DNA of 63,379 nucleotides from positions 1 through 63,379 of the forward strand of contig JAZQOJ010000152.1 of the NCBI GenBank assembly GCA_045627805.1. The letters are read 5' to 3'. Of this stretch, positions 14,321 to 63,379 are shown piece after piece. Every line of letters starts with the position of its first letter. Position 1 is the stretch's first letter. Under the pieces are notes generated by a model. That model did no database searches, had not been told where the DNA came from, and saw nothing but the letters and a program-made list of their open reading frames with translations. The stretch is from Bacteroidales bacterium. Lineage in GTDB: Bacteria > Bacteroidota > Bacteroidia > Bacteroidales > WCHB1-69. Made by a program: the position numbers and the translations under genes.

Positions 14321-14354
14321 AAAAAGACGGAATCATTTCCGTCTTTTTATTTTG
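14321..14354 (+). terminator. rho-independent terminator
   Basis: Stem aaaaagacgg / ccgtcttttt followed by T-rich tract. Confidence 0.7.
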
Positions 14355-14365
14355 GAAATATTACT

Positions 14366-14422
14366 TTTCATCTTGTAAATGCCGCAATGATTGGAGCGAG
14401 ATGTTCGCATAATGGGAATTAT
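14366..14422. repeat. 57-nt inverted repeat, left arm (partner 20901-20957)
   Basis: tttcatcttgtaaatgccgcaatgatTggagcgagatgttcgcataatgggaattat equals the reverse complement of 20901-20957 with one mismatch (56/57). Confidence 0.95.
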
Positions 14423-14650
14423 GAGACGTGGAAACGGTTAACGTCGGTTAAACGGTTAATGGGATGAAGGGACGAAGGGCTTAATTGTTGAGAAACGAGA
14501 ACAGAAAGTTGAGAACTGAGGTTTTAGATTTTGTTTGAACAGTGAAATGGATGAAGGCCGCCTGCGGCGGAAACAAGAAATGTGCAGGAAATTTCGAGGA
14601 AATGATCAGGAAAATGCGGATGATTTCCCCCTTATCGAAGCCCTAAAATT
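14409..14650 (+). repeat. MITE-like unit 'D': terminal inverted repeats around a purine-rich brick module (M)
   Basis: The left end is ATAATGGGAATT (14409-14420) and the right end is ATTTCCCCCTTAT (14623-35), followed by cgaagccctaaaatt. The interior is homologous to 20388-20525 in the same orientation. Confidence 0.8.
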
Positions 14651-14666
14651 AAACTTATGAATCCGC

Positions 14667-14703
14667 AATAAAAAATCCCGCGGTGAGATTCACTGCGGGA
14701 TTT
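14667..14703 (-). terminator. rho-independent terminator of the giant surface-protein gene
   Basis: On the minus strand: stem aaatcccgc / gcgggattt followed by TTTTTTATT. A second imperfect palindrome (14715-14754) lies directly after the stop codon. Confidence 0.65.
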
Positions 14704-14757
14704 AACTTTATATAATATTGTAGAAACGTTGCATTGCAACGCCTCTACAATATATTG

Positions 14758-17700
14758 TTATCTCTTCACAACTTTTACAGTCGTGGTAGCATTGTTGTTG
14801 GCGATGCGGATCATATAAACGCCAGGAGCAACGTTGCTGAGGTTGAGTTCAGTGCGTTCGCTCTGGATGGTGGTGTTCATAATCACCTTGCCAAACATAT
14901 CGTAAACGCTGAGGTTTGCACCGATGGCGCTGCATTCAACGTTCACAACATTGTGAGCAGGATTCGGATAAACATTGGCAGCGATTGCGTAATTGTGGAT
15001 GCCAATGGTAGTGTCGGCGAAAGTGAATTCAACGGCTTCGCTCCAATCGGAGGTGTTGTCTTCGTCGCAGATGGCTTGAACCATAACGGTAACAACGGTG
15101 CTGTCTTCCAAACCTTCGAAAGTGTAGGTGTTGCCAGCCACCTCAACGGTGGTGGTATCTTCAGCCACGATGTACATCAGGTTGAAGTTTTCAGCTTCGC
15201 TTTCCCAAGTAGCGATGTTGTTTTCAACGGTTACGTTAGCGGGAACTTCGCAAGGTTCAACTACAGGTTCGGTGGTGAAAGTGAATTCAACGGCTTCGCT
15301 CCAATCGGAGGTGTTGTCTTCGCCGCAGATGGCTTGAACCATAACGGTAACAACGGTGCTGTCTTCCAAACCTTCGAAGGTGTAGGTGTTGCCGGCGACT
15401 TCTACGGTGGTGGTGTCTTCAGCAACAACATACATCAGATTGAAGTTTTCAGCTTCGCTTTCCCAAGTAGCGATGTTGTTTTCAACGGTTACGTTGGCGG
15501 GAACTTCGCAAGGTTCATTCGCAAAAATGTTGATGTCATCCAAATAGACGTTGTTGCCATCCATACCTACGCCTCTGAAAGCGATTCGATAAGCGGAAGT
15601 AGGATTGGGCAGCTGATAAGTAGCCACATCATAATCTTCCATCGGGGTGGTGAAAGAAGCGATCAGATTCCAAGTCGTATCTTCCTCAGTTGTATAGTAA
15701 ACATACAGTTGGTCGCAGGTGCCTTCCCAGTTATTGGTCCAATATGCGAAAGAGAGTTCCGGATTTTGCACCTGTGAAAGATCGAAAACGGGAGAAATCA
15801 GCAATCCCTCATTGTTTTCATAGTAGGGGAATCCTACTGCATAGTCGCCTTCATAAGCTGTCTCATTAAATCCCCAGTTGTGGGTGCCTGCAAGTTGCAT
15901 AACTCCCCAGCAAATAATGTCTTCTTCCCAACCTTCGTGGTAAGGTTGGTCGTAGGTTACAACCACCACGTCGGCACATTCGGTAGCGATTTCTGTTCCT
16001 GCGGTCCAGTATGACTGATCTTCATCGGAGCAGTATGCACGAACGGAAACAGTGTAAACGGTGGCGGCCTCCAAGCCAGTGATAGTAAACGGATGAGCCG
16101 ACACGAGGGTGGTGTCGCCATTGCAAGCAACCTGCCACTGTGTTTCGTCGCCGGCAGGAGTCCAGTCAACTACTGCGCTGTTGGCAGTGGTCAGGGAATC
16201 AACGATTACGACATCAGTGGGTTTGAAACAGGTGGGAGTTTCGCCAACCATCACATCATCCAAAAAGATGTAGGAATCATAATAACTACTACCACAATTG
16301 CTGATGCCCTTGAAGATGAACATTACATTGGTAGCATTGGCCAAAGCCGGAACTGCGATTTCTTCGGTGGTCCAATCGGCAGCGCCTTGCAAACCGGTTG
16401 CAATGGGCGTATAGGTAGAACTGTCGGTGGTGTACATATCTTCAAAGCCCTGAGCTGCAGCAGGATTCTTGTGCGTGAAGGTGATCATAGGATTGTTGAT
16501 GACGGTCAAATCCAGAACGGGAGTCTTCAGCAAGCTGTACTGACCAGAACTGGGATTGTAGGAGTTGAATCTTACGCAATGACCGGTCACGCCAGTGGCA
16601 TAATAATTCCATCTGTAAGAAGCATTAGTAACGGTTCCTTCTGCATTATCCCAACAGGAGGGGATGCCGGAAGTGAGGGTATTGAAATCTTCAGCAAATG
16701 GATTGTTTGCAGTTACAACTACAGTTTCACATTCGGTGGTGAAGGAAGCGGTAGTGCTCCAATATGATTCGTCTTCTTCAGAGCAGATAGCTTTCACTTT
16801 TACAGTGTAGCTGGTAGCTGCATCCAAACCAGTGAGGGTGAAAGGATTGTCATTTGCTTCGTATTCGGTACCGTTTGCATCAATGATCCAAGCGTTTTCG
16901 GTGCCACCGTTGGTCCAAGCGATGTCGGCAGTGTGAGCCGTGATGTTGCTAACGGTAACTCCGGTCGGTTTCGGGCAGGTGGGTGTTTCATCAACGATTA
17001 CATTATCCATATAGGTAGGATTTCCGTACTGTGATTCACCTTGGAAGATGATGTAATTCACGCCCGTAGCGGTGATGGGCAATTCGTAGGTGTACCAACC
17101 CGTACTGGTTTCCGCACCCACGATGTTTGAGTTAACGGTAGAGGCAACGGTGCAGTTGCGGCTGATGAATGCCAATTCGGTGGCATTTGCGTTCACTTCA
17201 GGTTCGCTATTGACGAAAATGCGGATGCCTTCATTGGGGGAAGATGTGCCGGAAGTATTTCTATACACGTCAACGGAAAGGAAGTAACCATTTTCGTAAG
17301 TGAAATCCATTGCGCCTGTTACGAGAGCGTGGACACTACCTGCGCGCGTGTCGCGCAATTGTGCCTGTGCGGTACTGTTGTCTCCATTGGTGGAAGTATA
17401 GCGTGCCCAAGCGCCATCAGGATAGTCAATGCCATAGAAATATCCGCTATTGCCTTCGCTTGTTCTCGATTGCGACCAGCAAATGGGTGGGAATGTAGTG
17501 GCTTCAAAATCTTGAACGTAGGGGAAGGTAGTATTGATTTCACATTCAGTGGTGAAGGAAGCGGTAGCGCTCCAGTCTGATTCTTCTTCTTCAGAGCAGA
17601 TAGCTTTCACTTTTACAGTGTAGATGGTAGCTGCATCCAAACCAGAGAGGGTGAAAGGATTGTCATTTGCTTCGTATTCGGTACCGTTTGCATCAATGAT

Positions 17701-20178
17701 CCAAGCGTTTTCGGAGCCACCGTTGGTCCAAGCGATGTCGGCGGAAGTGGTGGTAATGTTGCTAACGGTAACTGCGGTCGGTTTCGGACAAGCGGGCGCC
17801 ATAGTAACCACAAGATTGTCGATACCGCAATCATAGTAGGAATTTGAAGTTTCTTCCCATTGGAAGGCGATTCTTGCGCCAGCGGGAATGGTGCTGGGGA
17901 TGATGATTTCGGCATTTGCTGCAGAAGTACTACTGGTTACACTGCTAGCAGAAACGAAAGAGGCAACATCGTCCAAATCGGTTACATAGCCAACAGACAA
18001 AGTTCCCTGTGTGGCACTTTCCATTCTGTAAGTAAAAGTAACAATAGCATTTTGCGGATTCGTAAATTCCGGAAGATAAGCGATGTTGATGGTACCGCAG
18101 TTTTGACTAGGATTGCCGCCAGAGCGGAAGTTGAGACCTTTGCTGCTTGTGGGAACATACGAAGTAGAGACACGAGGGAGCGTATTGGCATTACTGCCAT
18201 TGGAGATCGTTCCCCAGCAGATGGGAATAACACCATTGGCGTTATTTTGGTAAGTCGCTGTATAGCTGTCGAAGTTTTCGCTATAGGGTTCGGTTTCAGT
18301 AAGCGCGAAAGCTTCACATTCAGTTACGAAAGTCGTGGTGGTGCTCCAAGCGGATTCATCATCGGCATCGCAGTTAGCTTTCACCTTTATGGTGTAGCTC
18401 GTAGAAGGATTCAAACCAGTGAGGTTGAACGGATTGGTAGTAGCAGCGATTTCGGTGCCGTTGTAGTCAATCGTCCAAGCGTTTTCTTCGCCGCCATTGG
18501 TCCAAGCGATGTCGGCGGAAGTGGTGGTAATGTTGCTAACAGTAACTGCGGTCGGAGCCGGGCAGGAAGGAGGCGTGATGAAAGAAGCGGTAGCACTCCA
18601 GTCTGATTCGTCATTAGCCGCGCAATTGGCCTTCACTTTAACAGTATAAGAAGTTTCAGGAGTCAAGCCAGTCAAAGTGAACGGATTGGTAGCAGCGATT
18701 TCGGTGCCGTTGTAGTCAATCGTCCAAGCGTTTTCTTCGCCGCCATTGGTCCAAGCGATGTCGGCGGTATGAGCGGTAATGTTGCTAACGGTAACTTCGG
18801 TCGGTTTCGGGCAGGTGGGAGCTGCGCCAATCATTACATCGTCCAAGTAAATGTAGTCATCACCATAGCCACAGTTGCTGATGCCCTTGAAGATGAACAT
18901 TACGTTGGTAGCATTGGCCAAAGCCGGAACTACGATTTCTTCGGTGGTCCAATTGGCCGCGCCTTGCAAACCGGTTGCAATGGGCGTATAGGTAGAACCG
19001 TCGGTGGTGTACATAACTTCAAATCCCTGAGCTGCAGCAGGATTCTTGTGCGTGAAGGTGATCATAGGATTGTTGATGGCGGTCAAATCCAAAACGGGAG
19101 TCTTCAGCAAGCTGTACTGACCAGAAGCGGGATAGTAGGAGTTGAATCTTACGCAATGACCGGTCACGCCAGTGGCATAATAATTCCATCTGTAAGAAGC
19201 AGTAGTAACGGTTCCTTCTGCATTATCCCAACAGGAGGGGATGCCGGAAGAGATAGAGTTGAAGTCTTCGGTGAAGGGGGTGGATTCGGTAACCACAGTG
19301 CTGCTGCAGAGCGTGGTGAACAAGACACCGGGAGTGGTATATTCGGATTCTTCAGCACCGCCGCAAACGGCTTTAACGCTTGCAACATAATTGGTGTTGG
19401 GGGTCAAACTGGTAACGGTGTAGGAGGGAGTTCCACTTACGGGGTATTCGTCATCGTTGATTTTAACAACCCAGTCGGTTTCGGTATTGCCGGGGGTCCA
19501 GGTAACGGTGGCACCATTGGAAGTGATGTTGGAAACCACCAAATTGGTAGGAGTGAGACAGCCGTGAAGTTCGTCAACGGTAAAGGTGGTCTTCGGGATG
19601 AAGTCTTGAATAACTGTATTCCAAGAATTTATATTAAAAACAATATTTTCTAAGGATTCATCATCGTACCCATAAATTGCAGCATCGTTAATCGTTTGCC
19701 CATAGAAGTATGCACTCTTATAGGTTCCCGGAGTGGTATTGTGAATGGTAACCAGCAAATTACCACCCTGGTAGGTGTAAGGCGTATCGAAAATGATTTC
19801 CATAGTTTCTCCCGTTCCGTTAAGAGAACCTTCATAAACCATTGTCGCGCTGCTCACATCACTAAAAGATGAGATAATTGAGCTCGCAACTTCCTGCAAA
19901 TACACCTTGAAATGAGCAATTCCCCAACCAGCGGCAGCAGGAGTACTCAGATAATAGGTCAATTTTGAAATGTTGCTGCCGTTCATAGCCGTGAGGTGGT
20001 CGGCCGGAATGACATATTCACATTTCAAGTAGTTATCGCAGTAGACTCCATAAACTGGAATATAGCTGCTGGTGCTCGTGCCGTCGTAAACGGTGTAGTT
20101 CACCTGCGCTCCAGCCGTGCCGATACTGCCGACTAACAGCGTCGCAATAAATGCGAACATTAATAAAACTTTTTTCAT
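14758..20178 (-). CDS. giant T9SS-secreted surface protein with multiple FN3-like and MAM/choice-of-anchor-like modules
   Basis: 1806 aa with an N-terminal signal peptide. At least 7 FN3-like units of the form C(P/F)(K/A)PT.VTVSNIT...W... are present. The C-terminal VYPNPAHNVVNV...GVYMIRI...VKVVKR is a typical Por/T9SS sorting domain. Confidence 0.9.
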   Translation of the reverse strand: MKKVLLMFAFIATLLVGSIGTAGAQVNYTVYDGTSTSSYIPVYGVYCDNYLKCEYVIPADHLTAMNGSNISKLTYYLSTPAAAGWGIAHFKVYLQEVASSIISSFSDVSSATMVYEGSLNGTGETMEIIFDTPYTYQGGNLLVTIHNTTPGTYKSAYFYGQTINDAAIYGYDDESLENIVFNINSWNTVIQDFIPKTTFTVDELHGCLTPTNLVVSNITSNGATVTWTPGNTETDWVVKINDDEYPVSGTPSYTVTSLTPNTNYVASVKAVCGGAEESEYTTPGVLFTTLCSSTVVTESTPFTEDFNSISSGIPSCWDNAEGTVTTASYRWNYYATGVTGHCVRFNSYYPASGQYSLLKTPVLDLTAINNPMITFTHKNPAAAQGFEVMYTTDGSTYTPIATGLQGAANWTTEEIVVPALANATNVMFIFKGISNCGYGDDYIYLDDVMIGAAPTCPKPTEVTVSNITAHTADIAWTNGGEENAWTIDYNGTEIAATNPFTLTGLTPETSYTVKVKANCAANDESDWSATASFITPPSCPAPTAVTVSNITTTSADIAWTNGGEENAWTIDYNGTEIAATTNPFNLTGLNPSTSYTIKVKANCDADDESAWSTTTTFVTECEAFALTETEPYSENFDSYTATYQNNANGVIPICWGTISNGSNANTLPRVSTSYVPTSSKGLNFRSGGNPSQNCGTINIAYLPEFTNPQNAIVTFTYRMESATQGTLSVGYVTDLDDVASFVSASSVTSSTSAANAEIIIPSTIPAGARIAFQWEETSNSYYDCGIDNLVVTMAPACPKPTAVTVSNITTTSADIAWTNGGSENAWIIDANGTEYEANDNPFTLSGLDAATIYTVKVKAICSEEEESDWSATASFTTECEINTTFPYVQDFEATTFPPICWSQSRTSEGNSGYFYGIDYPDGAWARYTSTNGDNSTAQAQLRDTRAGSVHALVTGAMDFTYENGYFLSVDVYRNTSGTSSPNEGIRIFVNSEPEVNANATELAFISRNCTVASTVNSNIVGAETSTGWYTYELPITATGVNYIIFQGESQYGNPTYMDNVIVDETPTCPKPTGVTVSNITAHTADIAWTNGGTENAWIIDANGTEYEANDNPFTLTGLDAATSYTVKVKAICSEEDESYWSTTASFTTECETVVVTANNPFAEDFNTLTSGIPSCWDNAEGTVTNASYRWNYYATGVTGHCVRFNSYNPSSGQYSLLKTPVLDLTVINNPMITFTHKNPAAAQGFEDMYTTDSSTYTPIATGLQGAADWTTEEIAVPALANATNVMFIFKGISNCGSSYYDSYIFLDDVMVGETPTCFKPTDVVIVDSLTTANSAVVDWTPAGDETQWQVACNGDTTLVSAHPFTITGLEAATVYTVSVRAYCSDEDQSYWTAGTEIATECADVVVVTYDQPYHEGWEEDIICWGVMQLAGTHNWGFNETAYEGDYAVGFPYYENNEGLLISPVFDLSQVQNPELSFAYWTNNWEGTCDQLYVYYTTEEDTTWNLIASFTTPMEDYDVATYQLPNPTSAYRIAFRGVGMDGNNVYLDDINIFANEPCEVPANVTVENNIATWESEAENFNLMYVVAEDTTTVEVAGNTYTFEGLEDSTVVTVMVQAICGEDNTSDWSEAVEFTFTTEPVVEPCEVPANVTVENNIATWESEAENFNLMYIVAEDTTTVEVAGNTYTFEGLEDSTVVTVMVQAICDEDNTSDWSEAVEFTFADTTIGIHNYAIAANVYPNPAHNVVNVECSAIGANLSVYDMFGKVIMNTTIQSERTELNLSNVAPGVYMIRIANNNATTTVKVVKR
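15019..15516 (-). repeat. intragenic tandem duplication (2 x 240 nt, 258-nt period)
   Basis: 15019-15258 and 15277-15516 are near-identical. Both encode EPCEVPANVTVENNIATWESEAENFNLMY.VAEDTTTVEVAGNTYTFEGLEDSTVVTVMVQAIC.EDNTSDWSEAVEFTF. Confidence 0.9.
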
Positions 20179-20262: not shown

Positions 20263-20374
20263 CTAAAATTTTTTATAAGTATTAAATTTTTTGTAAAAGA
20301 AATATTTAATAATATTTAAAAATTTATCCCTTTTGGTCTTGTTGATTTGTATGCTGAAATTTTAGAATCTTCCG

Positions 20375-20914
20375 ATAAGGGGAATTGTGAGACGTGGAAA
20401 CGGTTAACGTGGTTAAACGGTTAATGGGATGAATGGACGAAGGGACGAATGGTGGAAAGGACGAATGCCGCCTGCGGCGTGATAGAGGAAATTATCAGGA
20501 AATTTCAAGGAAATGATCAGGAAATTCTTCTTTTTCTTGCTGTTTCATAATGAAATAACAATAGTGAAAACGTGCTGGCTGCGGCCATCAATTGTTTTCC
20601 ACAATGAAGTTGTTGCGCCGTAGTCACATCCGGGAAGGATGTGACACCTATAACCCCACATAAGGACGAAGTCCGCGATGTGGGGTGAGCGAGCGTGTGC
20701 CAACACCTGGCATCTCGGAGAGATGCTACTAAAAGGTGTCGCACCTCTCCGAGGTTGTGCTCGCTGCAAGACAAAATGATGCAGCTCCGTTTTCTTTTAA
20801 TGAGCAACTTTCTTTTTCTCAAGAAAAAAAAGAAAGTTGAACAGCTGTGAACTGACAATTCGGGATTTGCGATGTGTTGAGAGGTAATTCCGCAGTGCGG
20901 ATAATTCCCATTAT
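20375..20914 (+). repeat. composite MITE-like unit 'U': TIR + brick module M + structured element R1 + inverted TIR
   Basis: The left end is ATAAGGGGAATT (20375-86), preceded by aaattttagaatcttccg. The right end is ATAATTCCCATTAT (20901-14). The interior is M (20388-20525), a spacer, then R1 (20587-20900). Confidence 0.8.
20587..20900 (+). ncRNA. candidate structured non-coding element R1, copy A (unclassified)
   Basis: A chain of 6 hairpins. It is homologous to the reverse complement of 62990-63379, with one compensatory change and loop-only changes between the copies. No conserved ORF. Confidence 0.5.
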
Positions 20915-20957
20915 GCGAACATCTCGCTCCCATCATTGCGGCATTTACAAGATGAAA
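20901..20957. repeat. 57-nt inverted repeat, right arm (partner 14366-14422)
   Basis: Its reverse complement matches 14366-14422 at 56/57 positions. Confidence 0.95.
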
Positions 20958-21068
20958 GGGGATAATTCCGTTTTTTATTCAGAAAACTTCGGGCAGCTCC
21001 CGATATTGGGAATGGTGGGTGTGTTGAATATAGACAGAAATCGGGTTCATTTTCTCGCAATATTATTG

Positions 21069-21076
21069 TATCTTTG
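21069..21076 (+). promoter_or_regulatory. -7 box TAnnTTTG (tatctttg)
   Basis: Exact motif 40 nt upstream of the ATG at 21116. Confidence 0.55.
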
Positions 21077-21115
21077 CCGAAAATTTTCTATTAAGAATTA
21101 AAAAATAAAAATAAG

Positions 21116-21880
21116 ATGAAAAAAATCTTGACTTTATGTTTATGTGCTTGTGTAGCAGTATTTTTTATGTCTTGTGAAGGAGACAAACTCACCCGCAAAA
21201 GAATCCAGGAAGATATCGCTGGTTCGTGGAAAAAGGTGCAAGAAGACGGCAAATTGGTGCCCACCAATGACAAAGTCGTATGTTCTTTCGATGGAATTGA
21301 CCACGCAGTCATCTCGGCAGTGCAGCAGAACGGCTATTGGTCGGGCCGCACGCCAATGAGTTACTCTGTAAAAGGCACAAAAGTGATTCTGGAAAACCAG
21401 GATGTGCATTACAAGTCGGAATGGGACCTGAGTTCCCTGACGAACGATGTATTCTCTGTGCGCCAAAGTATGACCTACGATGCCAATGGCGAAGTTGCAG
21501 GTCATTCCAATAATGCTGTGTATGAAAAGGTTAGCAACGATTTTACCAATGCTATCATTGGTACGTGGGAAGGCGTTTCTTTCGAGGGCGAAGTATCGCA
21601 CGGCTACATCGATCACCGTTGGGAATTCCGCAACGACCACACCTACACCTATTATATGAAAGAGGGTGACAACTGGGTGGAAGGCACCAACACGCTCAAC
21701 GAATATTTCGTTGACTGCGACTTTCTGGCTTTCCGCTGGAAAGATGCCGATGGCAACGAATTCCGCGAAATGTGGGACATCGAATCCTGCAACTCCACAC
21801 AAATGGTGTGGACCGCTTTGCGCGTAGATGCCAACAAAAACACCTACACCACCAAGTTTGTAATGAACAAGGTTCACTAA
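21116..21880 (+). CDS. hypothetical lipoprotein (lipocalin-like?)
   Basis: Signal peptide plus lipobox (VAVFFMSCEGD). W/Y-rich beta-type sequence. Confidence 0.6.
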   Translation: MKKILTLCLCACVAVFFMSCEGDKLTRKRIQEDIAGSWKKVQEDGKLVPTNDKVVCSFDGIDHAVISAVQQNGYWSGRTPMSYSVKGTKVILENQDVHYKSEWDLSSLTNDVFSVRQSMTYDANGEVAGHSNNAVYEKVSNDFTNAIIGTWEGVSFEGEVSHGYIDHRWEFRNDHTYTYYMKEGDNWVEGTNTLNEYFVDCDFLAFRWKDADGNEFREMWDIESCNSTQMVWTALRVDANKNTYTTKFVMNKVH

Positions 21881-25524: not shown

Positions 25525-25602
25525 AATCATCACTTTCCCATCTTGATATTTTGCTTGATGAAACTGTAGGCGCAACCTTTCCACTATTCCCCTTATCGGA
25601 AG
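25524..25602 (+). repeat. minimal member of the repeat family (L-like box + inverted terminal motif)
   Basis: gaatcatcactttcccatcttgatatttt resembles the L box ggaattatcccctttcatcttgtaaat. ATTCCCCTTATCGGAAG (25586-25602) is identical to the terminal motif at 20370-20386 (reverse complement). Confidence 0.7.
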
Positions 25603-25673
25603 CTGCCTGGAGTTTTCTAAATAAAAATTGCGAAGAATCTTACTCCGATTGAACTTTTAATCGTAACTTTGCC

Positions 25674-25712: not shown

Positions 25713-27824
25713 ATGAAAAAACTTTTCACACTTCTTATCGGTTTGGCTTTCATTGCCAACAGTATTTTTGCTGCCCCTATTTCCAAAGAATCTGCTGCAA
25801 GAGTTGTCCATAACTTCTTGTTGCAAAAGCAGATGAATAACAAGACCAGCAATACGGACTTTTCCTTTTACAAAACTTTTTACGTTGATAACACTGCGGT
25901 TTACCACGTTTTCACTTTTAATGAAACTGGCTTTATCGCGATCTCTGCCTCCGATCATTTCACGCCGGTACTTTGCTACTCTTTTGAAAGCGACTACCAG
26001 CCCAATGTCGCTTTCGACTTTGCAATGGACAAATACGCCCGCTGGATTGCCTATTGTGAGAAAAACAATCAGGATTTTTCCGCGGACGTGACTTCCGACT
26101 GGGAACATTATGCTGCGCCCGATTTCACGGCGGAACCTCTGCGCGGAATTCCCGTTGTGGGTCCCCTCTTGACCACTTTATGGGATCAGGGACTCTATTT
26201 CAACACCTATTGTCCGTGGGATGCCAGCAGCTATTATGGCGACAGCCGCGTGGTAACGGGCTGCGTGGCCACCGCAATGGGCCAGGTGATGAATTACTAC
26301 GGGCATCCCTCATCCGGCGAGCAGGGTTCTTCGTACATTCCGGAGCCCTATGGCCGTTACACCATTCGTTTTTACGAATATGATTACAATTATGCTTCGA
26401 TGCCCAACAGCCCCAATACTTACTGCAACGAGTTGGCAAAACTGCTTCATCATTGCGGTGTCGCGGTACAGATGGGCTACACGCCTTCTGGCTCTGGCGC
26501 CAACAGCGTGTCAGCCATCGATGCGATGAAACGTCATTTCAAGTACGCTCCTAACGCCCAACTGATGACTCGCCTTTTTTACGACGACAATGATGGTTGG
26601 CACAACGCACTCAAAAGCGAGCTCAACCAGTTGCGCCCGCTCTACTATGCCGCCAATGATGGTCAGGGAGGACACGCCTTTGTGGTGGATGGTTACGACG
26701 AGGACGGAAAGTTCCACGTGAACTGGGGATGGAGCGGCAGCAGCAACGGCTATTTCACCATTTCCGATACCGACAATTCCGATATGCTGGGCTACATCTA
26801 CGGTGCCGAATTTGGCCGCTTCACTTACCCGCGCGAGCAAGATGCTCCGGCTCCGTGTGCCGGTTTCCAACGCAATGATGCCGCTATAGGCAAAATCACC
26901 ACGGGAATGCCCACCTCCCTCTACAGCGCCAACGCCGACTGCCAGTGGATGCTCGCTGCTCCCGAAGCATCGCGTTATACCTTGAAATTCGACCGGCTGG
27001 AAACGGAACAAGATGTGGACATCGTTACCATTTACAATGGCCCCACTCCCGATGCGGGTGTGGCAGGCACTTTCAGCGGTACCAGCTTGCCTACCAGCTC
27101 CATCACTGTGAATGCCGACAGTGTGCTCGTTACCTTCACTTCCAACGCCGAAAACCAACTGCACGGATTTCAAATCAGCTATCAGGCCGTTACCGCTGCT
27201 CAATACTGCGACGACGCTGCCAGCATCACCGGAACCGAAACCGTTACCATCACCGACGGCAGCGGCAACAACCCATACCGCAATAATAGCAATTGCACTT
27301 GGAATATCACGACTCCGAATATGAGCAAATGCTATTTCAGCTTCCCGCAACTCGAATTGGGCGAGGGCGATTTCATTGAAATTTACAACTCCTCAACCAC
27401 TCCCGCCACCCTCCTTTATCGCTTCGACAATCGCAATTATCCGCAGAACGATGTTATCACTTGTGAAAACAGAAAACTGAAAGTTCGCTTTATCGCCGAT
27501 AACTGGAATGTTGGTAACGGTTTCTCTATGACGGTGCAGCCCGTTACAGCCGTGAATGATTATGCCAACATCCTCGACCTGAAAGTTTATCCGAATCCGG
27601 TAAAAGACGTGCTCAATCTCAATTTTGTAACCGAAGAGACGGGCGTTATTGTCTGCGAGATTGTGGATATGAACGGCAAATTGCTTCGCAAGATTGAGCA
27701 ACCGCACCAGGGCGGACTGTTTGAACATCAATTCGGCATTGACGACCTTTCAGAAGGTATTTACTTCTTGCGCATTCGCACGAACGAAGGCAGCACGATG
27801 GAAAAATTTGTGAAAACGAAGTAG
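25713..27824 (+). CDS. C10-family cysteine peptidase with CUB-like domains and T9SS C-terminal sorting domain
   Basis: Catalytic-Cys context VVTGCVATAMGQVMNYY and His context GGHAFVVDGYD...HVNWGW. Two CUB-like C..W modules. C-terminal KVYPNPVKDVLNLNF...GIYFLRIRT. Confidence 0.85.
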   Translation: MKKLFTLLIGLAFIANSIFAAPISKESAARVVHNFLLQKQMNNKTSNTDFSFYKTFYVDNTAVYHVFTFNETGFIAISASDHFTPVLCYSFESDYQPNVAFDFAMDKYARWIAYCEKNNQDFSADVTSDWEHYAAPDFTAEPLRGIPVVGPLLTTLWDQGLYFNTYCPWDASSYYGDSRVVTGCVATAMGQVMNYYGHPSSGEQGSSYIPEPYGRYTIRFYEYDYNYASMPNSPNTYCNELAKLLHHCGVAVQMGYTPSGSGANSVSAIDAMKRHFKYAPNAQLMTRLFYDDNDGWHNALKSELNQLRPLYYAANDGQGGHAFVVDGYDEDGKFHVNWGWSGSSNGYFTISDTDNSDMLGYIYGAEFGRFTYPREQDAPAPCAGFQRNDAAIGKITTGMPTSLYSANADCQWMLAAPEASRYTLKFDRLETEQDVDIVTIYNGPTPDAGVAGTFSGTSLPTSSITVNADSVLVTFTSNAENQLHGFQISYQAVTAAQYCDDAASITGTETVTITDGSGNNPYRNNSNCTWNITTPNMSKCYFSFPQLELGEGDFIEIYNSSTTPATLLYRFDNRNYPQNDVITCENRKLKVRFIADNWNVGNGFSMTVQPVTAVNDYANILDLKVYPNPVKDVLNLNFVTEETGVIVCEIVDMNGKLLRKIEQPHQGGLFEHQFGIDDLSEGIYFLRIRTNEGSTMEKFVKTK

Positions 27825-57182: not shown

Positions 57183-57253
57183 TGTCCAATGGTGTAATGG
57201 TAGCACTACAGTTTTTGGTACTGTCTGTCTTGGTTCGAATCCAGGTTGGACAA
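57183..57253 (+). tRNA. tRNA-Gln (anticodon TTG)
   Basis: Hand-folded: acceptor TGTCCAA/TTGGACA, anticodon stem ACAGT/ACTGT with loop TTTTGGT, and T arm CTTGG-TTCGAAT-CCAGG. Confidence 0.85.
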
Positions 57254-57326
57254 CAGACAAAAGATGAACTCTCGCCTACTTGGTGGGGGTTTTTTTTATG
57301 AAAGTTATAAACAAAGAAATAAAAAA

Positions 57327-58571
57327 ATGGAAGAACACGCAAATTTGATTGAAACCTTTGCAGAGTTTAAGGAGTTCAAGAATATCGAAAAAGAGATGCT
57401 CCAGCGTATTTTGGAGGACATTTTCCGCTCGGTACTGGCCAAGAAATACGGTCCGGATGCGAACTTCGACGTGGTGGTGAACGTAGCGCGCGGGGATGTG
57501 GAAATCCAGCGCACGCGCGAAATCGTCGCCGACGGGGAAGTGGAGAACGAAAACACGCAGATCGCGTTCTCGGAAGTCGTGAAGATCGAGCCCGACAGCG
57601 AAGTGGGCGAGGAGTTTTTTGAAGAAATCAGCTTGAAGGATTTCCAGCGCCGCGAGATTCTCTCTTTGCGCCAAAACCTCATCTCCAAGATTATGGAGTA
57701 CGAAAAGGATTTGATCTATAAGAAATATGAAGGAAGAATTGGCGAACTGGTCAACGGCGAGGTGTCGCAGGCCTGGCGCAAGGAAATCATCGTGACCGAT
57801 GAGGACGGCGTTGACCTGGTGCTGCCGAAATCGGAACAGATTCCCGCCGACCATTTCAAAAAAGGCGACAGCATTCTGGCCGTTGTGGAACGCGTGGAAA
57901 TCGTCTCCTCGTCACCCCGCATCACCATCTCCAGAACCTCACCCCGCTTCCTGGAACGCCTGTTGGAAGCCGAGATTCCGGAAATCGACGATTGCACCAT
58001 CTTCATTAAGAATGTGGTCCGTTCTCCTGGTGAAAGAGCCAAGGTTCTGGTAGAGTCAACCGATGAGCGCATTGATCCCGTTGGCGCTTGCGTTGGCGTG
58101 AAGGGTGCTCGTATTCACGGCATCACCCGCGAACTGAGAGGCGAAAATATTGACATTATCAATTATACCGAAAATCCGAAACTTTTGATTACCAGAGCGT
58201 TGAGCCCTGCCAAGATTTCCAATATCGAATTGGACGAGGCCTCGAAAACCGCTTCCGTCTATATGAAACCCGACCAGGTGTCACTCGCTATTGGCAAGGG
58301 CGGCTACAACATCAAACTGGCAGGCCGTCTCTCGGGCTACGAAATCGACGTGTTCCGCGATGATATCGTGGAGGAAGATGACGTTGACTTGCAGGAATTC
58401 AACGATGTTTTCGACCAGTGGGTAATCGATGCCTTCAAGCACATTGGCTGCGACACTGCCAAGAGTGTGCTCAAGATCTCGCGCGACGAACTGGTTCAGC
58501 GTACCGACCTTGAGGAGGAAACCGTTGACGAAGTGATTGCTGCCGTTAGGGAAGAATTGGAAGTTGAATAA
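57327..58571 (+). CDS. nusA: transcription termination/antitermination factor NusA
   Basis: S1 and KH domain motifs (ISRT.P.FL..L...EIPEI, GACVG.KG.RI, AIGKGG.N..LA..L.G). Start moved to ATG 57327, because the listed 57246 overlaps the tRNA. Confidence 0.9.
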   Translation: MEEHANLIETFAEFKEFKNIEKEMLQRILEDIFRSVLAKKYGPDANFDVVVNVARGDVEIQRTREIVADGEVENENTQIAFSEVVKIEPDSEVGEEFFEEISLKDFQRREILSLRQNLISKIMEYEKDLIYKKYEGRIGELVNGEVSQAWRKEIIVTDEDGVDLVLPKSEQIPADHFKKGDSILAVVERVEIVSSSPRITISRTSPRFLERLLEAEIPEIDDCTIFIKNVVRSPGERAKVLVESTDERIDPVGACVGVKGARIHGITRELRGENIDIINYTENPKLLITRALSPAKISNIELDEASKTASVYMKPDQVSLAIGKGGYNIKLAGRLSGYEIDVFRDDIVEEDDVDLQEFNDVFDQWVIDAFKHIGCDTAKSVLKISRDELVQRTDLEEETVDEVIAAVREELEVE

Positions 58572-58643: not shown

Positions 58644-61484
58644 ATGGGCGAAGAAAAGAAAACACCAAAATTAGGCGCGGCTGCCAAAGAATTCAATGTC
58701 TCCACCAATACCATTGTGGAGGTTTTGAAAAAACATTCCATTGAAATTGAAGACAATCGTAACCTAAGACTTTCAGCCGAAATGTACGAAGTTTTGCTGA
58801 AGGCCTTGAGTAGCGATAAAAAGGCGAAGGAAGAGTCGGAGAAACTGGATATGGACTTTTCTTACAACAAGAACAATCCGTCAAAATCCGAGCCCGAGGC
58901 CAGAGTAGAAGTGGAAGAAGAGCCGGCCGAGGTCATCCTCATCAAGGACAACACGGCGACAATAGAAAAGGAAACCATCAAAGTGGAAATCAGCCGTCCC
59001 AAGGTTGTGGGCCATATTGACTTGGAACCCAAGAAGCCAGCGAAGGCCGAGCCGGAGCCGGAAGTTCAGGAAACGAAGGTTGAAAGCGCTCCCGTTGTGG
59101 AGCCGGAAGCGCAGGCGGAGATTGCGAAGCCCATCGCAGAACCGGTTGCCGAAACCGAGCCCGTCGAGGTCAAGGATGAGCCAGCGGAACAGCCCAAAGA
59201 GGTGAAGAAGCCGGAACACGAACACATTGGCATCACCGTGGAAAAAGCGGCTGGTCCCAAAGTGGTAGGCCAAATCGACCTGAACGCGCCGCTGAAGAAA
59301 GCACAGCCCGAAAAGACTGTTGCGACTCCCGACTCTGAAGAACCCGCCACCCCCGAACCGAGCACTACGCCCATGCCCGAAAAGGTGGAAATCGCGGTTG
59401 AAAAGCTCAAGGCACCCAAGGTCGTTGGCACGATTGACCTGTCGGCCATTAAGGAAGCGCCTAAGAAATCGGAAAATTCCAGCGTGAAGCAGAAGCGTAA
59501 GCGCATCAAGCAGAAAGTGAACGTGAAATCGGGAGGCGATGGCAACAAGCCCAAGAAGGTGGAACCGAAAATCGAGATTTCAGCCGAAGATATCGACCGC
59601 CAGATCCGCGCCACCAAACAGCGTATGGAACCCGTTGGCAAGACCAAGGCGGCCAAGCGCAGAAGAGAAAAACGCCAGCAGATTCACGAGGAAATTCTGC
59701 AACAGGAACAGCAAGAATTGGCACAGCAGAAGATTCTGAAGGTTACGGAATTCATCACCGCCAACGAGTTGGCTACGATGATGAACATTCCTGTCACCCA
59801 GATTATTTCCACTTGTATGAGTGTGGGCCAATTCGTGTCAATCAACCAGCGTCTGGATGCCGAAATCATTTCACTGCTGGCCGATGAGTTTGGTTATGAA
59901 TACGAATTTGTGGGAGTTGACGACGATGAGGAACACAAGGACGACGCCGAGCAAGACGCACCGGAAGACCTGTCGCCCCGCCATCCCATCATTACCGTTA
60001 TGGGTCACGTTGACCACGGTAAGACCTCACTGCTTGACTACATCCGTAAGTCGAATGTGATTGCGGGTGAAGCAGGCGGTATTACGCAACATATTGGTGC
60101 ATACGAGGTTACGCTTGCCGATGGTAGAAAAATCACATTCCTTGATACGCCGGGTCACGAAGCGTTTACCGCTATGCGTGCGCGTGGTGCCAAAATCACC
60201 GACCTTTGTATCATCGTGATTGCTGCCGATGACTCCATTATGCCGCAGACCGTGGAAGCTATCAATCACGCGCAGGCGGCTGGCGTTCCGATGGTGTTCG
60301 CCATTACGAAAATCGATAAACCGCAGGCCGACCCTGAAAAGATTAAGGGCGAACTGGCAAATATGAACCTGTTGGTGGAAGACTGGGGTGGCAAATACCA
60401 GTGCCAGGAAATCGATGCCAAGCACGGTACCAATGTTAACGAATTGTTGGAGAAAGTGCTTTTGGAAGCCGAGATGCTGGAGCTGAAGGCCAATCCGAAC
60501 CGACTGGGTGTGGGAACCGTCATCGAGTCTTCTTTGGACAAGGGGATGGGCTATGTGGCGAAATTGCTGGTGCAAAACGGCACGCTGAGCGTGGGCGATC
60601 CGATTTATGCGGGAAGCTGCTACGGCAAAGTGAAAGCGCTGTACAACGAGCGTCGCCAGAAAGTGAAATCAGTGGGTCCCGCCTCTCCTGTGTTGCTGTT
60701 GGGATTGGATGGCGCTCCGCAGGCAGGCGACACCTTCAAGGTTTGTGAAACCGAGCAGGAAGCTCGTTCCGTGGCTTCCAAACGCGCCCGCCTGATTCGC
60801 GAGCAGGGTCTCCGCACGCAGAAGCACATCACCCTCGACGAAATCGGCCGCCGCATTGCTATTGGCGACTTCAAGGAGTTGAACGTGATTGTGAAGGGCG
60901 ACGTGGATGGCTCCGTGGAAGCACTCTCCGACTCCTTGATGAAATTGTCAACCGAGCAAATCCAGGTCAACGTTATTCACAAGTCGGTGGGCCAGGTTAC
61001 CGAAAGCGACGTGTTGCTGGCTTCCGCCTCCAATGCGCTCATCGTGGCCTTCCAGGTGCGTCCGTCGTTGGGCGCCCGCCGATTGGCCGAAAAGGAACAG
61101 ATCGACCTCCGCACCTACTCCATCATCTATGACGCGATTGAGGAAATCAAGTCGGCAATGGAGTGTATGTTGGCACCGAAAATCAGAGAGAAAATCGTGT
61201 GCAACATCGAGATCAAGGAAGTTTTCAAAATCACGAAGGTGGGCAATGTGGCTGGATGTATCGTGCTGGACGGCAAGTTGCAGCGCAACACCAAAATACG
61301 CCTCATTCGCGATGGTATCGTAATTTATACTGGCAAACTCGGCTCTCTGCGCCGTTTCAAAGACGATGTGAAGGAAGTCGTTTCCGGCCAGGATTGCGGT
61401 TTGAACATCGAAAACTTCAACGATATCAAGGTGGGCGACATCGTGGAAGGTTATGAGGAATACGAAGAGAAAGCCACTCTGTAA
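58644..61484 (+). CDS. infB: translation initiation factor IF-2
   Basis: GTPase motifs [22 protein letters not shown] and TKIDK. Acidic/Pro-Glu-rich N-terminal region. 946 aa. Confidence 0.95.
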
Positions 61485-62308: not shown

Positions 62309-62773
62309 TCAGCGCTGTTCCCGTTGAAATTCCATTGTGGTCACAATATCGGTTCCGTTTTCAATGACAAGATTTTGCGCGGTAAGAGTGCGCACCGTAT
62401 AAATCACGGGCTCCATTCCGGGGGCTTGGATGAAACTCAGTTGGTCGCCCTCCATCGTCCACTGCATCGGCGTTTCGCTCACTCCGTTGGTGGTGATCAG
62501 CGTGCCATCTTCCTCAAAAATGAGTTGGAAGTCCTGCGTATAAAAATTGGTTATATCGATAACATTGCCGCTCACTACTTGTGTGGCTTGGACCATCCGC
62601 CAATGTCCTAAAATTGAGAAAGTCTCATCGGAATCGTCAGTATCGGATTCATCGGAAATTTCCTCAGTGGGGGTTTCGGCATCGGGGAGCGGCTCCTTTT
62701 CGCAAGAAGAAAACAGAAATGCGCTTCCCATAAAAAGGGCCAGGATTGTGATAAAGGCGTATTTTTTCATCAT
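62309..62773 (-). CDS. hypothetical lipoprotein (lipocalin-like?)
   Basis: Start moved to MMKKYAFITILALFMGSAFLFSSCEKE (signal plus lipobox). A -7 box lies at 62807-62814. Confidence 0.6.
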   Translation of the reverse strand: MMKKYAFITILALFMGSAFLFSSCEKEPLPDAETPTEEISDESDTDDSDETFSILGHWRMVQATQVVSGNVIDITNFYTQDFQLIFEEDGTLITTNGVSETPMQWTMEGDQLSFIQAPGMEPVIYTVRTLTAQNLVIENGTDIVTTMEFQREQR

Positions 62774-62814: not shown

Positions 62815-62851
62815 AAAAAAATCCTGGAATTCGGTTTTCTCTCCATTCCAT

Positions 62852-62989
62852 AACGGAATTATTTCCTTTCATCTTGTAAATGATATTAGTGAACAGTGAT
62901 CAGTGAACAGTGATTTGATTAAGGGGAAGTCGCAAGTCTTGTTGATTGATACGCCGAGAATTTTAGGAACTTCAGATAAGGGGAACTAT
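62852..62989 (+). repeat. repeat-family flank: L box + variant spacer (with 14-nt tandem) + terminal motif
   Basis: aacggaattatttcctttcatcttgtaaatg (62852-62882) matches the reverse complement of 20942-20972. There is a tandem agtgaacagtgatc/agtgaacagtgatt at 62888-62915. The segment ends with gagaattttaggaacttcagATAAGGGGAACTat. Confidence 0.85.
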
Positions 62990-63379
62990 CCGCACTGCGG
63001 AATTCCCGCTCAACACATCGCAAATCCCGAATTGCTAGATCGCGGCTGTTCAACTTTCTTTTTTTCTTGAGAAAAAGAAAGCTACTTATTGAAAGAAAAC
63101 GGAGTCGCATCATTTTGTCTTGCAGCGATAACAACCTCGGAGAGGTTGGATTCCTATAACCCCAGATAAGTGTAGCGCAATCTGGGGAGGAGAGCGCCAC
63201 TGGAGAAAGGCACCTCGGAGAGGTGCGACACCGCTTAGTAGCATCTCTACGAGATGCCGGATGTCGGCACGCGTTCGCCCACCCCACATCGCGGACTTCG
63301 TCCTTATGTGGGGTTATAGGTGTCACATCCTTCCTGGATGTGACGGTGGCGCCACATCTTGATTGTGGAAAACAATGAT
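62990..63379 (-). ncRNA. candidate structured non-coding element R1, copy B (inverted relative to copy A; runs into window edge)
   Basis: Its reverse complement aligns with 20587-20900. It carries an extra 78-nt module bounded by the 12-nt direct repeat cctcggagaggt (63135-46 and 63213-24). Confidence 0.5.

Follow-up and report, generated by a model that had tools for sequence, protein, structure and literature searches.

R1, a palindrome-rich sequence in a Bacteroidales contig, is probably the internal module of a non-coding mosaic MITE-like element

Introduction

The Correia/NEMIS elements of Neisseria, the ERIC sequences of enterobacteria and the RUP elements of Streptococcus pneumoniae are 100–160 bp long and consist mostly of one hairpin formed from their termini. 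The BIME/REP units of E. coli are 20–40 bp long, occur in hundreds of copies and are linked to the REP-associated Y1 transposase. The IS200/IS605-derived PATEs lack terminal inverted repeats, and attC sites carry defined R''/R' core sites.

BrickBuilt, a MITE of Porphyromonas gingivalis, is intergenic, non-coding and modular, with a leader, tandem repeats and a tail (Klein et al. 2015, PMC4596501). It has small inverted-repeat ends, partial forms that miss modules and a limited host range, and it gives rise to spurious hypothetical genes; at its centre is a 23-nt minisatellite with as many as ~23 units, and promoter activity has been reported for its segments (PMC4596501).

In this study, we analyzed R1, a hairpin-rich sequence in a contig of 63,379 nt, which was taken in full and is called the window hereafter. 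The host is an uncultured member of the Bacteroidota with a type IX secretion system, which occurs in the samples ERZ27247231/2, SRR21150965, SRR35169701 and ERR6929725. Our results indicate that R1 probably forms the palindrome-rich interior of a mosaic MITE-like element of ~650 bp, which is non-coding, lineage-specific and located between genes.

Results

Repetition and Extent of R1

The initial annotation reported R1 as an inverted duplicate, and the duplication is real. A repeat search of the window found three collinear pairs of arms, 20591–20755/63212–63376 (90% identity), 20734–20830/63059–63155 (88%) and 20825–20919/62971–63065 (88%), and the pairwise alignment of 20591–20919 with the reverse complement of 62971–63376 showed 88–90% identity with the single 78-nt indel that had been described. 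Of the extent proposed for R1 (20587–20900), the repetition stood and the left edge did not, as the homology continues to ~20313 on the left and to ~20974 on the right. The edge at 20587 is an artefact because the window is the whole contig and ends inside copy B. R1 is an inner module of a ~650-bp non-coding repeat, not a free-standing unit, and the window contains two R1 copies (A and B), one derivative without R1 (X) and a solo fragment (Table 1).

Further copies emerged when translations of the element were used as protein queries. P0002 and P0003 led to L003 and P0007 to L006 (a contig of assembly ERZ27247232), both of which are DNA copies from ENA metagenomes; P0008 was also retrieved, and the spurious ORFs P0002 and P0008 point to two more copies on other NCBI contigs (15,388 and 56,594 nt). 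A chimeric query of 2272 aa that combined six frames found no match. In P0008, the left arm is joined to H5 at a common TTCTTTTTCT stretch. All R1 pairs among the four DNA copies are 87–90% identical, and the divergence is star-like (38 singleton sites vs. 9 informative ones). Substitutions of every type are present (28 transitions and 19 transversions), and the split defined by the 78-nt indel (A and L006 vs. B and L003) clashes with the substitutions, being supported by 1 site vs. 4 and 4. A diversity-generating retroelement TR/VR pair was considered and rejected, as the differences are not confined to adenines and the window ORFs that were scanned include no reverse transcriptase.

Exact scans with the R1 24-mer ACATAAGGACGAAGTCCGCGATGT gave 0 matches in IMG/VR, GTDB representative genomes and JGI metagenomes, and a 28-mer of H5 gave 0 matches in IMG/VR. 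The left-arm 21-mer GAGACGTGGAAACGGTTAACG gave 0 matches in GTDB genomes, the source genome not being among the representatives, and a single match in JGI metagenomes (L007), which was judged to be due to chance because it lies in coding sequence of high GC content that shows no further similarity. Neither the 24-nt nor the 21-nt probe had a related match in GTDB representative genomes. The blastn search of 20300–21115 in distant mode against PLSDB plasmids and INPHARED phages found no match, and literature on the sample accessions and terminal motifs yielded nothing relevant. Judged by these scans, the repeat family appears to be lineage-specific, being absent from GTDB representatives, JGI metagenomes, IMG/VR, plasmids and phages.

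Table 1. Coordinates of the repeat copies, their modules and the R1 hairpins in the window.
Feature	Position	Strand	Evidence or remark
Copy A, whole element (~660 bp)	20313..20974	+	nhmmer, 5-sequence element alignment
Outer left terminal inverted repeat, copy A, TTATCCCTTTTGGTCTTGT	20324..20342	+	Partner 20947-20965; 19 nt, 84% complementary
Inner left inverted repeat, copy A	20367..20386	+	Partner 20903-20922; 20 nt, 80%
19-nt motif TTCSNATAAKGGGAAYTAT in inner left repeat region	20370-20388		Motif search
Left arm, micro-tandem arrays (AAACGGTT)x3.2, (GGGACGAA)x5, (AGGAAATTATC)x3.7	20398..20526	+	Tandem Repeats Finder
R1, short form, without the 78-nt segment	20587..20925	+	
H1	20623-45		
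H2	20654-85		
H3	20699-711		
H4	20711-25		
H5	20805-39		
H6	20889-901		
Right terminal region, copy A	20898..20969	+	Inner repeat 20903-20922, outer repeat 20947-20965
19-nt motif, right terminal region of copy A	20901-20919	-	
GGGATAATTCC, end of the copy A right terminal region	20959-20969		
Copy B, left part cut by contig end	62842..63379	-	nhmmer match 63378-62842; R1 full form 62965-63379 and right terminal region
78-nt segment	63134..63211	-	In copy B and L003 but not in copy A or L006
Imperfect palindrome of ~190 nt, full-length R1 core	63143..63331		blastn self-hit 63331-63143, 67% over 200 columns, E = 7.6e-13
Terminal 19-nt motif, right end of copy B	62971..62989	+	Inverted relative to left-end copies
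Short derivative X	14346..14650	+	Left terminal region, micro-repeat arm, degenerate right end; no R1
Solo fragment	25581..25639	-	Copy of module 20961-21018 that follows copy A; one TTCCGATAAGGGGAAT motif

Layout of the Element

In the alignment, copy A consists of a left terminal region, a micro-repeat arm, a linker, the short form of R1 and a right terminal region. The terminal inverted repeats are two nested pairs that contain a GGAATTATC-type motif, which the array unit AGGAAATTATC of the left arm resembles. The left-arm arrays recur at 14432–14613 in X, and the right terminal region of copy A is 93% complementary to 14354–14422. In L006, an inverted repeat pairs 203–226 with 722–745 (24 nt, 79%). 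Furthermore, the window has 5 occurrences of the motif TTCSNATAAKGGGAAYTAT (0.03 expected), four at element ends in inverted orientation and the fifth in the solo fragment (25583–25601). The ends are tentatively GGAATTATCCC...ATAAKGGGAATTAT; since there are two sequence variants of the terminal regions and the complementarity of the outer inverted repeats is just 79–84%, the true termini are uncertain. As a result, the finding that no common direct repeat, as expected for a target-site duplication, lies beside the GGAATTATCCC / GGGATAATTCC termini compared in A, X, L003, L006 and B applies to uncertain ends.

The 78-nt segment is bounded by a 13-nt direct repeat, ACCTCTCCGAGGT (63212–63224 and 63134–63146), and carries a hairpin, H2' (CCCCAGAT...ATCTGGGG). 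In the full-length form, which is represented by copy B and L003, H2–H4 lie inside the imperfect palindrome of ~190 nt, and this palindrome is formed in the minimum free energy (MFE) structures of both strands of copy B.

Genomic Context

The copies occupy intergenic regions whose contexts are unrelated: copy A lies between divergent genes, X between two convergent terminators, and the L006 copy adjoins a terminator. Copies A and B are both located 150–220 bp upstream of a small lipoprotein gene and in the same orientation. The two downstream genes show no homology to each other (E = 0.59), and both have a TAnnTTTG promoter of their own that lies beyond the element. Segmental duplication of a gene together with its upstream region was therefore rejected, as the lipoproteins are unrelated and the homology ends before the promoters.

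Short-read contigs break at or just beside the repeat modules. Besides the window itself, which ends inside copy B, sister-strain contigs start at 20947, inside the right terminal region of copy A, and at 21064/5, ~90 bp past the element and beyond the module 20961–21018. The left end of the window is coding sequence, not repeat, and the protein at 39–674, which was used to extend beyond this end, returned nothing on record. No transposase was found among the window ORFs scanned, and neither an autonomous partner with the same termini nor an empty site was found in the window or in the sister-strain contigs, which break at the repeat.

Coding Potential

The ORFs at 20517–20936(−) and 62919–63326(−) read opposite strands of the homologous sequence, as had been noted, and the TGA/TGG difference that places a stop in copy A within the copy-B frame is present. 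The same frame is also interrupted by TGA in L003 and L006. The absence of an ORF common to the copies, which was claimed from A and B, held as further copies emerged. No element ORF matched Pfam at E ≤ 0.1. A search of 5.8 billion proteins returned just other spurious ORFs of the same element, and a profile of the +frame ORFs, run against 1.84 billion representative proteins, retrieved just P0007, P0008 and P0009, the last of which is a repetitive protein unrelated to the element.

Folding and Stem Conservation

All six proposed hairpins are present (Table 1), save that H4 ends at 20725 and not at 20726. H4 competes with a longer hairpin whose arms are 20714–29 and 20738–53, and an 11-bp helix, ATCTCGGAGAG/CTCTCCGAGGT, is a further proposed helix. 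The sequences fold far more stably than their shuffles (z = −5.6 to −6.3), and they do so on both strands, the MFE values of the + and − strands being −123.5 and −124.3 kcal/mol for A, −158.8 and −156.2 for B, −178.4 and −170.8 for L003, and −121.6 and −120.6 for L006.

The stems vary less than the rest of the sequence. Among the four copies, 7 of 99 stem columns are variable, compared with 54 of 216 elsewhere (p = 1e-4), and the two copies that were not used to define the stems give 3/99 vs. 26/207 (p = 0.006). The H1–H2 block is the most conserved part (5 of 72 columns variable). These results indicate that, unlike plain junk DNA, the palindromes are likely under some constraint.

The pattern of changes is a different matter. 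The differences between A and B respect the stems, as originally described, but the compensatory double change reported in H3 fails once L003 and L006 are added, since both have an A.C mismatch at this pair. Of the 48 proposed pairs, 44 are invariant and three show double changes, a count that was reached in 99 of 500 shuffles. RNAalifold gives the two strands covariation terms of +0.5 and −0.56, for four copies that at 87–90% identity afford too little power, and the strand preferences conflict, with H3 favouring the − strand and H5 the + strand.

Transcription signals were sought on both strands. No TAnnTTTG promoter is present inside any copy (the initial annotation had seen none upstream on either strand), sigma-70-like matches are at the shuffle level, and terminator-like sites were found neither in R1 nor adjoining any copy. 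In the whole window, Rfam 15 at the gathering score gave two tRNAs and nothing else, and at E ≤ 10, copies A, B, X, L003 and L006 gave just weak microRNA-hairpin noise on both strands. The sequence thus matches no Rfam family; the initial annotation, made without such a search, had been unable to match it to several named RNAs.

Discussion

R1 lies inside a non-coding repeat that is bounded by inverted repeats; therefore, a small non-autonomous mobile element, rather than an RNA gene, is the most likely explanation. The element is small and free of ORFs (~660 bp, with no conserved ORF, Pfam match or protein family), and it has terminal inverted repeats, although these are imperfect and of two variants. 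Several dispersed copies are present in one genome (A, B, X and the solo fragment), and others are on ENA contigs and, judging from the spurious ORFs, on further NCBI contigs. The derivative X, the fusion seen in P0008 and the 78-nt indel are typical of decaying non-autonomous elements.

How might such an element have spread? Its copying would have depended on an enzyme from another locus of the genome, a transposase or recombinase that recognised the repeated GGAATTATC-type sites, of which there are two per end, in direct orientation within an end and inverted between ends; degenerate copies of these sites may make up the 11-bp array of the left arm. A burst of copying would have been followed by a divergence of ~5–6% per copy and by decay through deletions between short direct repeats. 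The 78-nt loss would be one such deletion, which removed one arm of the 190-nt palindrome. The hairpins would then be DNA palindromes, which may bind a protein or may arise as structures in the course of replication or transposition, and would not have been shaped by selection on a transcript. The repetition, the inverted termini, the modular and deleted forms, the intergenic setting, the strand symmetry and the lack of coding or transcription signals are observed, whereas movement by transposition, an enzyme acting in trans and a role for the palindromes are inferred.

Could the hairpins instead be the helices of an RNA? R1 might be cargo of the element, either the gene of a structured non-coding RNA or an RNA of the guide or bridge type that serves a recombinase encoded elsewhere. 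The very stable folds (z about −6), the lower variability of the stems and the nearly invariant H1–H2 block are consistent with this, as are the outer pairs of H5, which are AU, GU, CG and UA across the copies, and the C-G to G-C swap between H2 and its inverted paralogue H2', which keeps each local hairpin. However, both strands fold equally well with a covariation term of about 0 on both, most pairs are invariant and the double changes are matched by shuffles, and neither strand is consistently paired, given that the H3 pair is A.C on the + strand in two copies and the H5 wobbles become C.A on the − strand. The 1-nt loop of H6 is unfeasible as an RNA hairpin loop, and some copies persist without 78 nt of the core or with no core at all. 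The lack of an Rfam match, of a promoter and of a terminator in any copy on either strand also argues against a transcript, and because copy A is located between divergent genes, read-through cannot supply one. We therefore consider an RNA gene unlikely. Of the two readings first proposed, the one that took R1 for the structured, single-stranded end of a mobile element stood in modified form, as to the repeat element; the other, a structured RNA, is unsupported rather than refuted, as four DNA copies at 87–90% identity are too few for a proper test of covariation. R1 is the interior of the element and not its end, and an action as single-stranded DNA is unsupported. Even so, R1 might be a cis-acting site of folded single-stranded DNA, such as an origin, a priming site or a recombination site used via a single-stranded or circular intermediate, of which a 661-bp loop in L006 would be the trace. 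The very short loops of the palindromes (1–5 nt), the strand-symmetric fold and the inner C-GAA-G turn of H2, which we take to be a mini-hairpin of the d(GCGAAGC) type that is very stable in DNA, fit this idea. Recurrent deletion between direct repeats at one palindrome arm suggests folding in vivo, and L006, which comes from a k=141 assembly, has ends with an overlap of exactly 141 nt. On the other hand, the L006 loop holds 140 nt that are absent from the other copies and may represent collapsed neighbours or a tandem duplication. Furthermore, no rolling-circle, Y1 or integron-type enzyme is nearby among the window ORFs scanned, the terminal inverted repeats led us to reject an IS200/605-type element, which would have subterminal hairpins and no inverted termini, and an attC site was rejected because the palindrome ends CCTATAACCCC and GGGGTTATAGG do not fit the RYYYAAC / GTTRRRY core-site consensus. 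A folded-DNA site of this kind is quite unlikely.

It is also conceivable that the element is immobile, being a BIME-like cluster of binding sites that spread by recombination and influences its neighbours, for example the lipoprotein genes downstream of A and B. A DNA-binding protein of the host would then bind the palindromes and the iterated GGAATTATC-like sites. The palindromes centred on 1–5 nt and the phased 8-/11-bp arrays look protein-binding, the modules recur in different combinations, and A and B share their position and orientation upstream of a lipoprotein gene. However, two of two in one orientation is weak evidence, the lipoproteins are unrelated and have their own promoters, and the placement of X between convergent terminators and of L006 beside a terminator shows no consistent relation to genes. 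The star-like divergence at 87–90% identity fits a burst of copying better than ancient regulatory sites, which makes this explanation quite improbable. A more far-reaching possibility is that R1 is a functional folded RNA or single-stranded DNA required in cis for the propagation of a new kind of non-autonomous element, either as a guide- or bridge-like RNA that a recombinase from another locus reads or as the replication or recombination signal of a ~661-bp circular or tandem unit, with L006 as its trace. Such a folded, functional nucleic acid would explain why the stems and the H1–H2 block are more conserved than the rest, but we regard it as very unlikely. Finally, the ORFs of 135–139 aa that are open across single copies would be expected of a decayed fragment of a protein-coding gene. 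The opposite strands of the ORFs in A and B, the TGA stops in the other three copies and the lack of any Pfam match or protein family among the billions of proteins searched led to the rejection of a pseudogene, and a coding fragment is effectively refuted.

The repeat matters mainly for annotation and assembly. It interrupts short-read contigs and yields spurious "hypothetical proteins" in public databases (P0001, P0002, P0003, P0007 and P0008). Elements of this kind can relocate promoters or terminators and cause rearrangements, as has been reported for BrickBuilt in P. gingivalis. Its interest would rise if the conservation of the palindromes reflected a cis-acting function of RNA or single-stranded DNA, if the L006 loop were a real circle, or if the partner enzyme for the doubled GGAATTATC sites were unusual.

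Among the described systems, PATEs and attC sites resemble R1 in that conserved imperfect hairpins would matter as folded DNA rather than as RNA or protein, but the element has the feature set of neither. Like BIMEs, it combines short palindromic and non-palindromic modules into mosaics between genes, often by terminators, although its modules are longer, its known copies are few and no associated enzyme was found. It shares with Correia/NEMIS, ERIC and RUP a small, non-coding, intergenic, inverted-repeat-bounded form with size variants and a stable fold on both strands. It differs from them in its length of ~650 bp, its several internal palindromes, its arrays and doubled terminal sites, and in having no recognised target-site duplication. 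With BrickBuilt it shares the phylum Bacteroidota, the intergenic, non-coding and modular organization, the inverted-repeat ends, the partial forms, the limited host range and the spurious annotations. The two are set apart by description: in place of a 23-nt tandem core between leader and tail and of reported promoter activity, the element described here has 8- and 11-nt units repeated 3–5 times, a palindrome-rich core of 340–415 nt and no evident promoter activity in the sequence that contains R1.

Extent and Architecture of the Element

The repeat search recovered the inverted repeat of the initial annotation as three collinear inverted arm pairs, and pairwise alignment placed one indel, of 78 nt, between copies A and B, the two occurrences of the hairpin-rich ~314-nt sequence R1. 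The extra DNA of copy B (63134-63211) is flanked by a 13-nt direct repeat, ACCTCTCCGAGGT. As had been reported, the ORFs 20517-20936(-) and 62919-63326(-) lie on opposite strands of homologous sequence, the frame open in copy B is stopped by a TGA in copy A, and all six hairpins (H1-H6) lie where they had been placed; the folds of both copies give z = -5.6 to -6.3 against shuffled sequence. The left edge assigned to the repeat, at 20587, did not hold. The window is an entire NCBI contig of 63,379 nt that stops inside copy B, and it is this truncation that produced the apparent limit.

Further copies were sought using as protein queries the spurious ORFs called on the element. These queries led to two more DNA copies in ENA metagenome assemblies (L003 and L006), and two copies on other NCBI contigs are known as "proteins" alone (P0002 and P0008). 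P0002, 96% identical to the ORF of L003, probably represents that locus in a sister strain. With a profile from the alignment of all copies, three elements were found in the window: A, B and a derivative lacking R1, designated X.

Features of the element copies and their surroundings
Feature	Position	Partner	Identity	Remark
Copy A, whole element	20313-20974			profile search
Copy B	62842-63379			profile search; cut by contig end
X, derivative without R1	~14346-14650			profile search
Solo fragment	25581-25639			
Left terminal region, copy A	20323-20390			outer and inner inverted repeats
Outer inverted repeat, copy A	20324-42	20947-65	84%	
Inner inverted repeat, copy A	20367-86	20903-22	80%	
Left arm, copy A	20398-20526			micro-tandem arrays (AAACGGTT)x3, (GGGACGAA)x5, (AGGAAATTATC)x3.7
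Arm pair 1	20591-20755	63212-63376	90%	inverted
Arm pair 2	20734-20830	63059-63155	88%	inverted
Arm pair 3	20825-20919	62971-63065	88%	inverted
T9SS gene	14758-20178(-)			
Small lipoprotein genes after R1 copies	21116-21880(+), 62312-62773(-)			same orientation, 150-220 bp away

In copy A, the outer left end is GGAATTATCCC and the outer right end GGGATAATTCC, and the sequences of the outer and inner repeats indicate that each end carries two direct GGAATTAT-type sites, ~55 nt apart. A 19-nt motif within the inner repeats, TTCSNATAAKGGGAAYTAT, occurs five times in the window versus 0.03 times expected; four of the five mark element ends, where they are inverted, and the remaining one belongs to the solo fragment. 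The unit of the third left-arm array, AGGAAATTATC, is itself a degenerate terminal site. A variable linker and then R1 follow the left arm, and the right terminal region overlaps H6. The terminal regions come in two sequence variants, which are combined differently across A, X, B, L003 and L006.

Just outside the right end of copy A lies a small repeat module (20961-21018). It recurs inverted, at ~80% identity, at 25581-25639(-), upstream of a C10 peptidase gene (25713-27824), and there it carries a solo TTCCGATAAGGGGAAT motif.

Full and Deleted Forms

R1 exists in two forms: a 78-80-nt segment is present in copy B and L003 and is absent, with an identical junction, from copy A and L006. The core of the full form is a ~190-nt imperfect palindrome (blastn self-inverted match 63143-63331, E = 7.6e-13), and the minimum-energy folds of copy B form this long hairpin, on both strands, instead of H2-H4. 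Within the extra segment, H2' (CCCCAGAT...ATCTGGGG) is an inverted paralogue of H2 (CCCCACAT...ATGTGGGG). A longer helix, ATCTCGGAGAG/CTCTCCGAGGT, competes with H4.

The substitution pattern is nearly star-like, with 38 singleton sites, and the grouping of A with L006 that the indel implies has one supporting site versus four for each of the other two groupings. This conflict indicates that the segment was deleted twice between the 13-nt direct repeats or that the copies recombined. P0008 represents another deletion, in which the left arm is joined to H5 at a common TTCTTTTTCT stretch, and X has lost R1 entirely.

Tests for Coding Potential and for a Structured RNA

The element has no coding potential. 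Pfam gave nothing at E <= 0.1, and 5.8 billion clustered plus 1.84 billion representative proteins returned only spurious ORFs of the same element and one unrelated repetitive protein. P0007 (L006:245-769) is an ENA gene call on a short contig in which TGA is read as a sense codon; the wrong genetic code has turned a non-coding element into a 174-aa public-database "protein".

Could the hairpins instead belong to a structured RNA, as initially proposed? Rfam gave no match at the gathering score or at E <= 10 for any copy on either strand. The Bacteroidota -7 motif TAnnTTTG, already reported as not visible upstream, is absent from both strands of all five element sequences; it matches only at 21069-21076 and 62814-62807, beyond the element, in the promoters of the two downstream genes. 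R1 contains no terminator-like site, and its sigma-70-like matches are at shuffle level. Copy A lies between the T9SS gene and a lipoprotein gene, and since the former is on the minus strand and the latter on the plus strand, no neighbouring transcript can read through it.

Folding energy is equal on both strands in 4/4 copies, and RNAalifold gave consensus energies of -97.0 and -95.5 kcal/mol for the two strands; the covariation terms were +0.5 and -0.56. In the hairpins, 44 of 48 pairs are invariant; double changes occur in 3 pairs, and 99 of 500 shuffles had at least as many. The H3 pair described as compensatory is AU in copy A and GC in copy B, but both L003 and L006 have A.C there. The outer H5 pairs are of G.U type in B and disrupted in L006, and a further uncompensated change in outer H5 is implied by P0002. 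On the opposite strand, the H3 and H5 verdicts are reversed, so neither strand is paired consistently. Each of these changes is a single transition affecting one arm of a DNA palindrome, the pattern expected from neutral drift.

Genomic Context and Distribution

The window encodes yidC, mutL, proS, nusA-infB, urocanase and several Por_Secre_tail proteins, and no transposase was found in it; it is ordinary chromosomal sequence from a member of the Bacteroidota that possesses a type IX secretion system. Each of the two lipoprotein genes has its own TAnnTTTG promoter; one product has a Lipocalin_4 domain, the other a weak DUF5004 match, and no homology between them is detectable (E = 0.59). The A/B homology ends before these promoters, X sits between two convergent terminators, and L006 adjoins a terminator. 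On these observations, the element is not consistently associated with any gene. In assemblies from this or a sister strain, contigs start at 20947, inside the right terminal region of copy A, and others from sister strains at 21064/5, ~45 nt past the module 20961-21018.

The T9SS gene encodes a 1806-aa type IX secretion cargo (six fn3, MAM, Por_Secre_tail) with internal DNA repeats: 258 nt x1.9 (15019-15517), ~800-nt units (16725-18598) and a 300-nt pair (16292/18869, 96% identity). Sub-threshold Rfam matches at 14664-14801(-), to the trpB motif (37 bits vs 59 needed) and to His and Thr leaders, are two hairpins downstream of this gene, one being its intrinsic terminator, with no leader peptide context. 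Elsewhere, tRNA-Gln(TTG), at 57183-57254(+), is directly upstream of nusA-infB (57246-58571, 58644-61484); because the start of the listed nusA ORF overlaps it, the true start is probably further downstream.

The element family had no match in plasmids, phages, IMG/VR, GTDB representative genomes or JGI metagenomes. The sole metagenome match of the 21-mer GAGACGTGGAAACGGTTAACG, at L007:2488-2508 (JGI/ENA contig, Hainich groundwater), falls inside high-GC coding sequence that otherwise shows no similarity to the element and was rejected as chance, 21-mers being able to match by chance in a collection of such size. In L006:1-802 (ENA ERZ27247232 k141_1488484), a k=141 assembly, the first 141 nt equal the last 141 nt. 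It is a closed 661-bp loop that consists of one short-form element and a further 140 nt from outside the element, which contain a terminator-like hairpin; the loop could represent a tandem array, the collapse of two adjacent copies or a small DNA circle.

Interpretation

The palindromes are probably constrained. Variable columns make up 7/99 of the stems versus 54/216 of the rest (p = 1e-4), and 3/99 versus 26/207 between L003 and L006, which were not used in defining the stems (p = 0.006). Conservation is highest in the H1-H2 block (5/72 columns variable versus 52/239 elsewhere), and the local stems of H2 and H2' are each kept through a C-G/G-C swap. Constraint on double-stranded binding sites, on folded DNA or on RNA would each be compatible with these data. 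A structured RNA borne by the element would account for the constraint, but we consider it unlikely given the strand-symmetric folding and the inconsistent pairing. A cis-acting single-stranded-DNA signal, possibly tied to the closed L006 loop, would also suit conserved palindromes, as would a non-mobile, BIME-like cluster of protein-binding sites; we regard each of these two as quite improbable. A decayed gene is hardly credible in view of the Pfam and protein searches.

We consider it probable that R1 forms the palindrome-rich interior of a MITE-type repeat element that is lineage-specific, mosaic and non-autonomous. The element's size, non-coding sequence, inverted termini and multiple copies are those of a MITE; neither a target-site duplication nor an empty site or a partner IS could be demonstrated for it. 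On this reading, an enzyme encoded elsewhere would bind the doubled GGAATTATC-type terminal sites and copy the element, which would then decay through deletions between short direct repeats. We infer transposition as such, this enzyme and what the palindromes do.

The closest described counterpart, BrickBuilt of Porphyromonas gingivalis, is likewise a Bacteroidota element: a modular MITE of intergenic DNA, composed of a leader, tandem repeats and a tail, whose inverted ends are small and which occurs in many partial forms (PMC4596501). The present element differs in having short 8- and 11-nt arrays where BrickBuilt has a 23-nt minisatellite, as well as in its large palindromic core and its doubled terminal sites.
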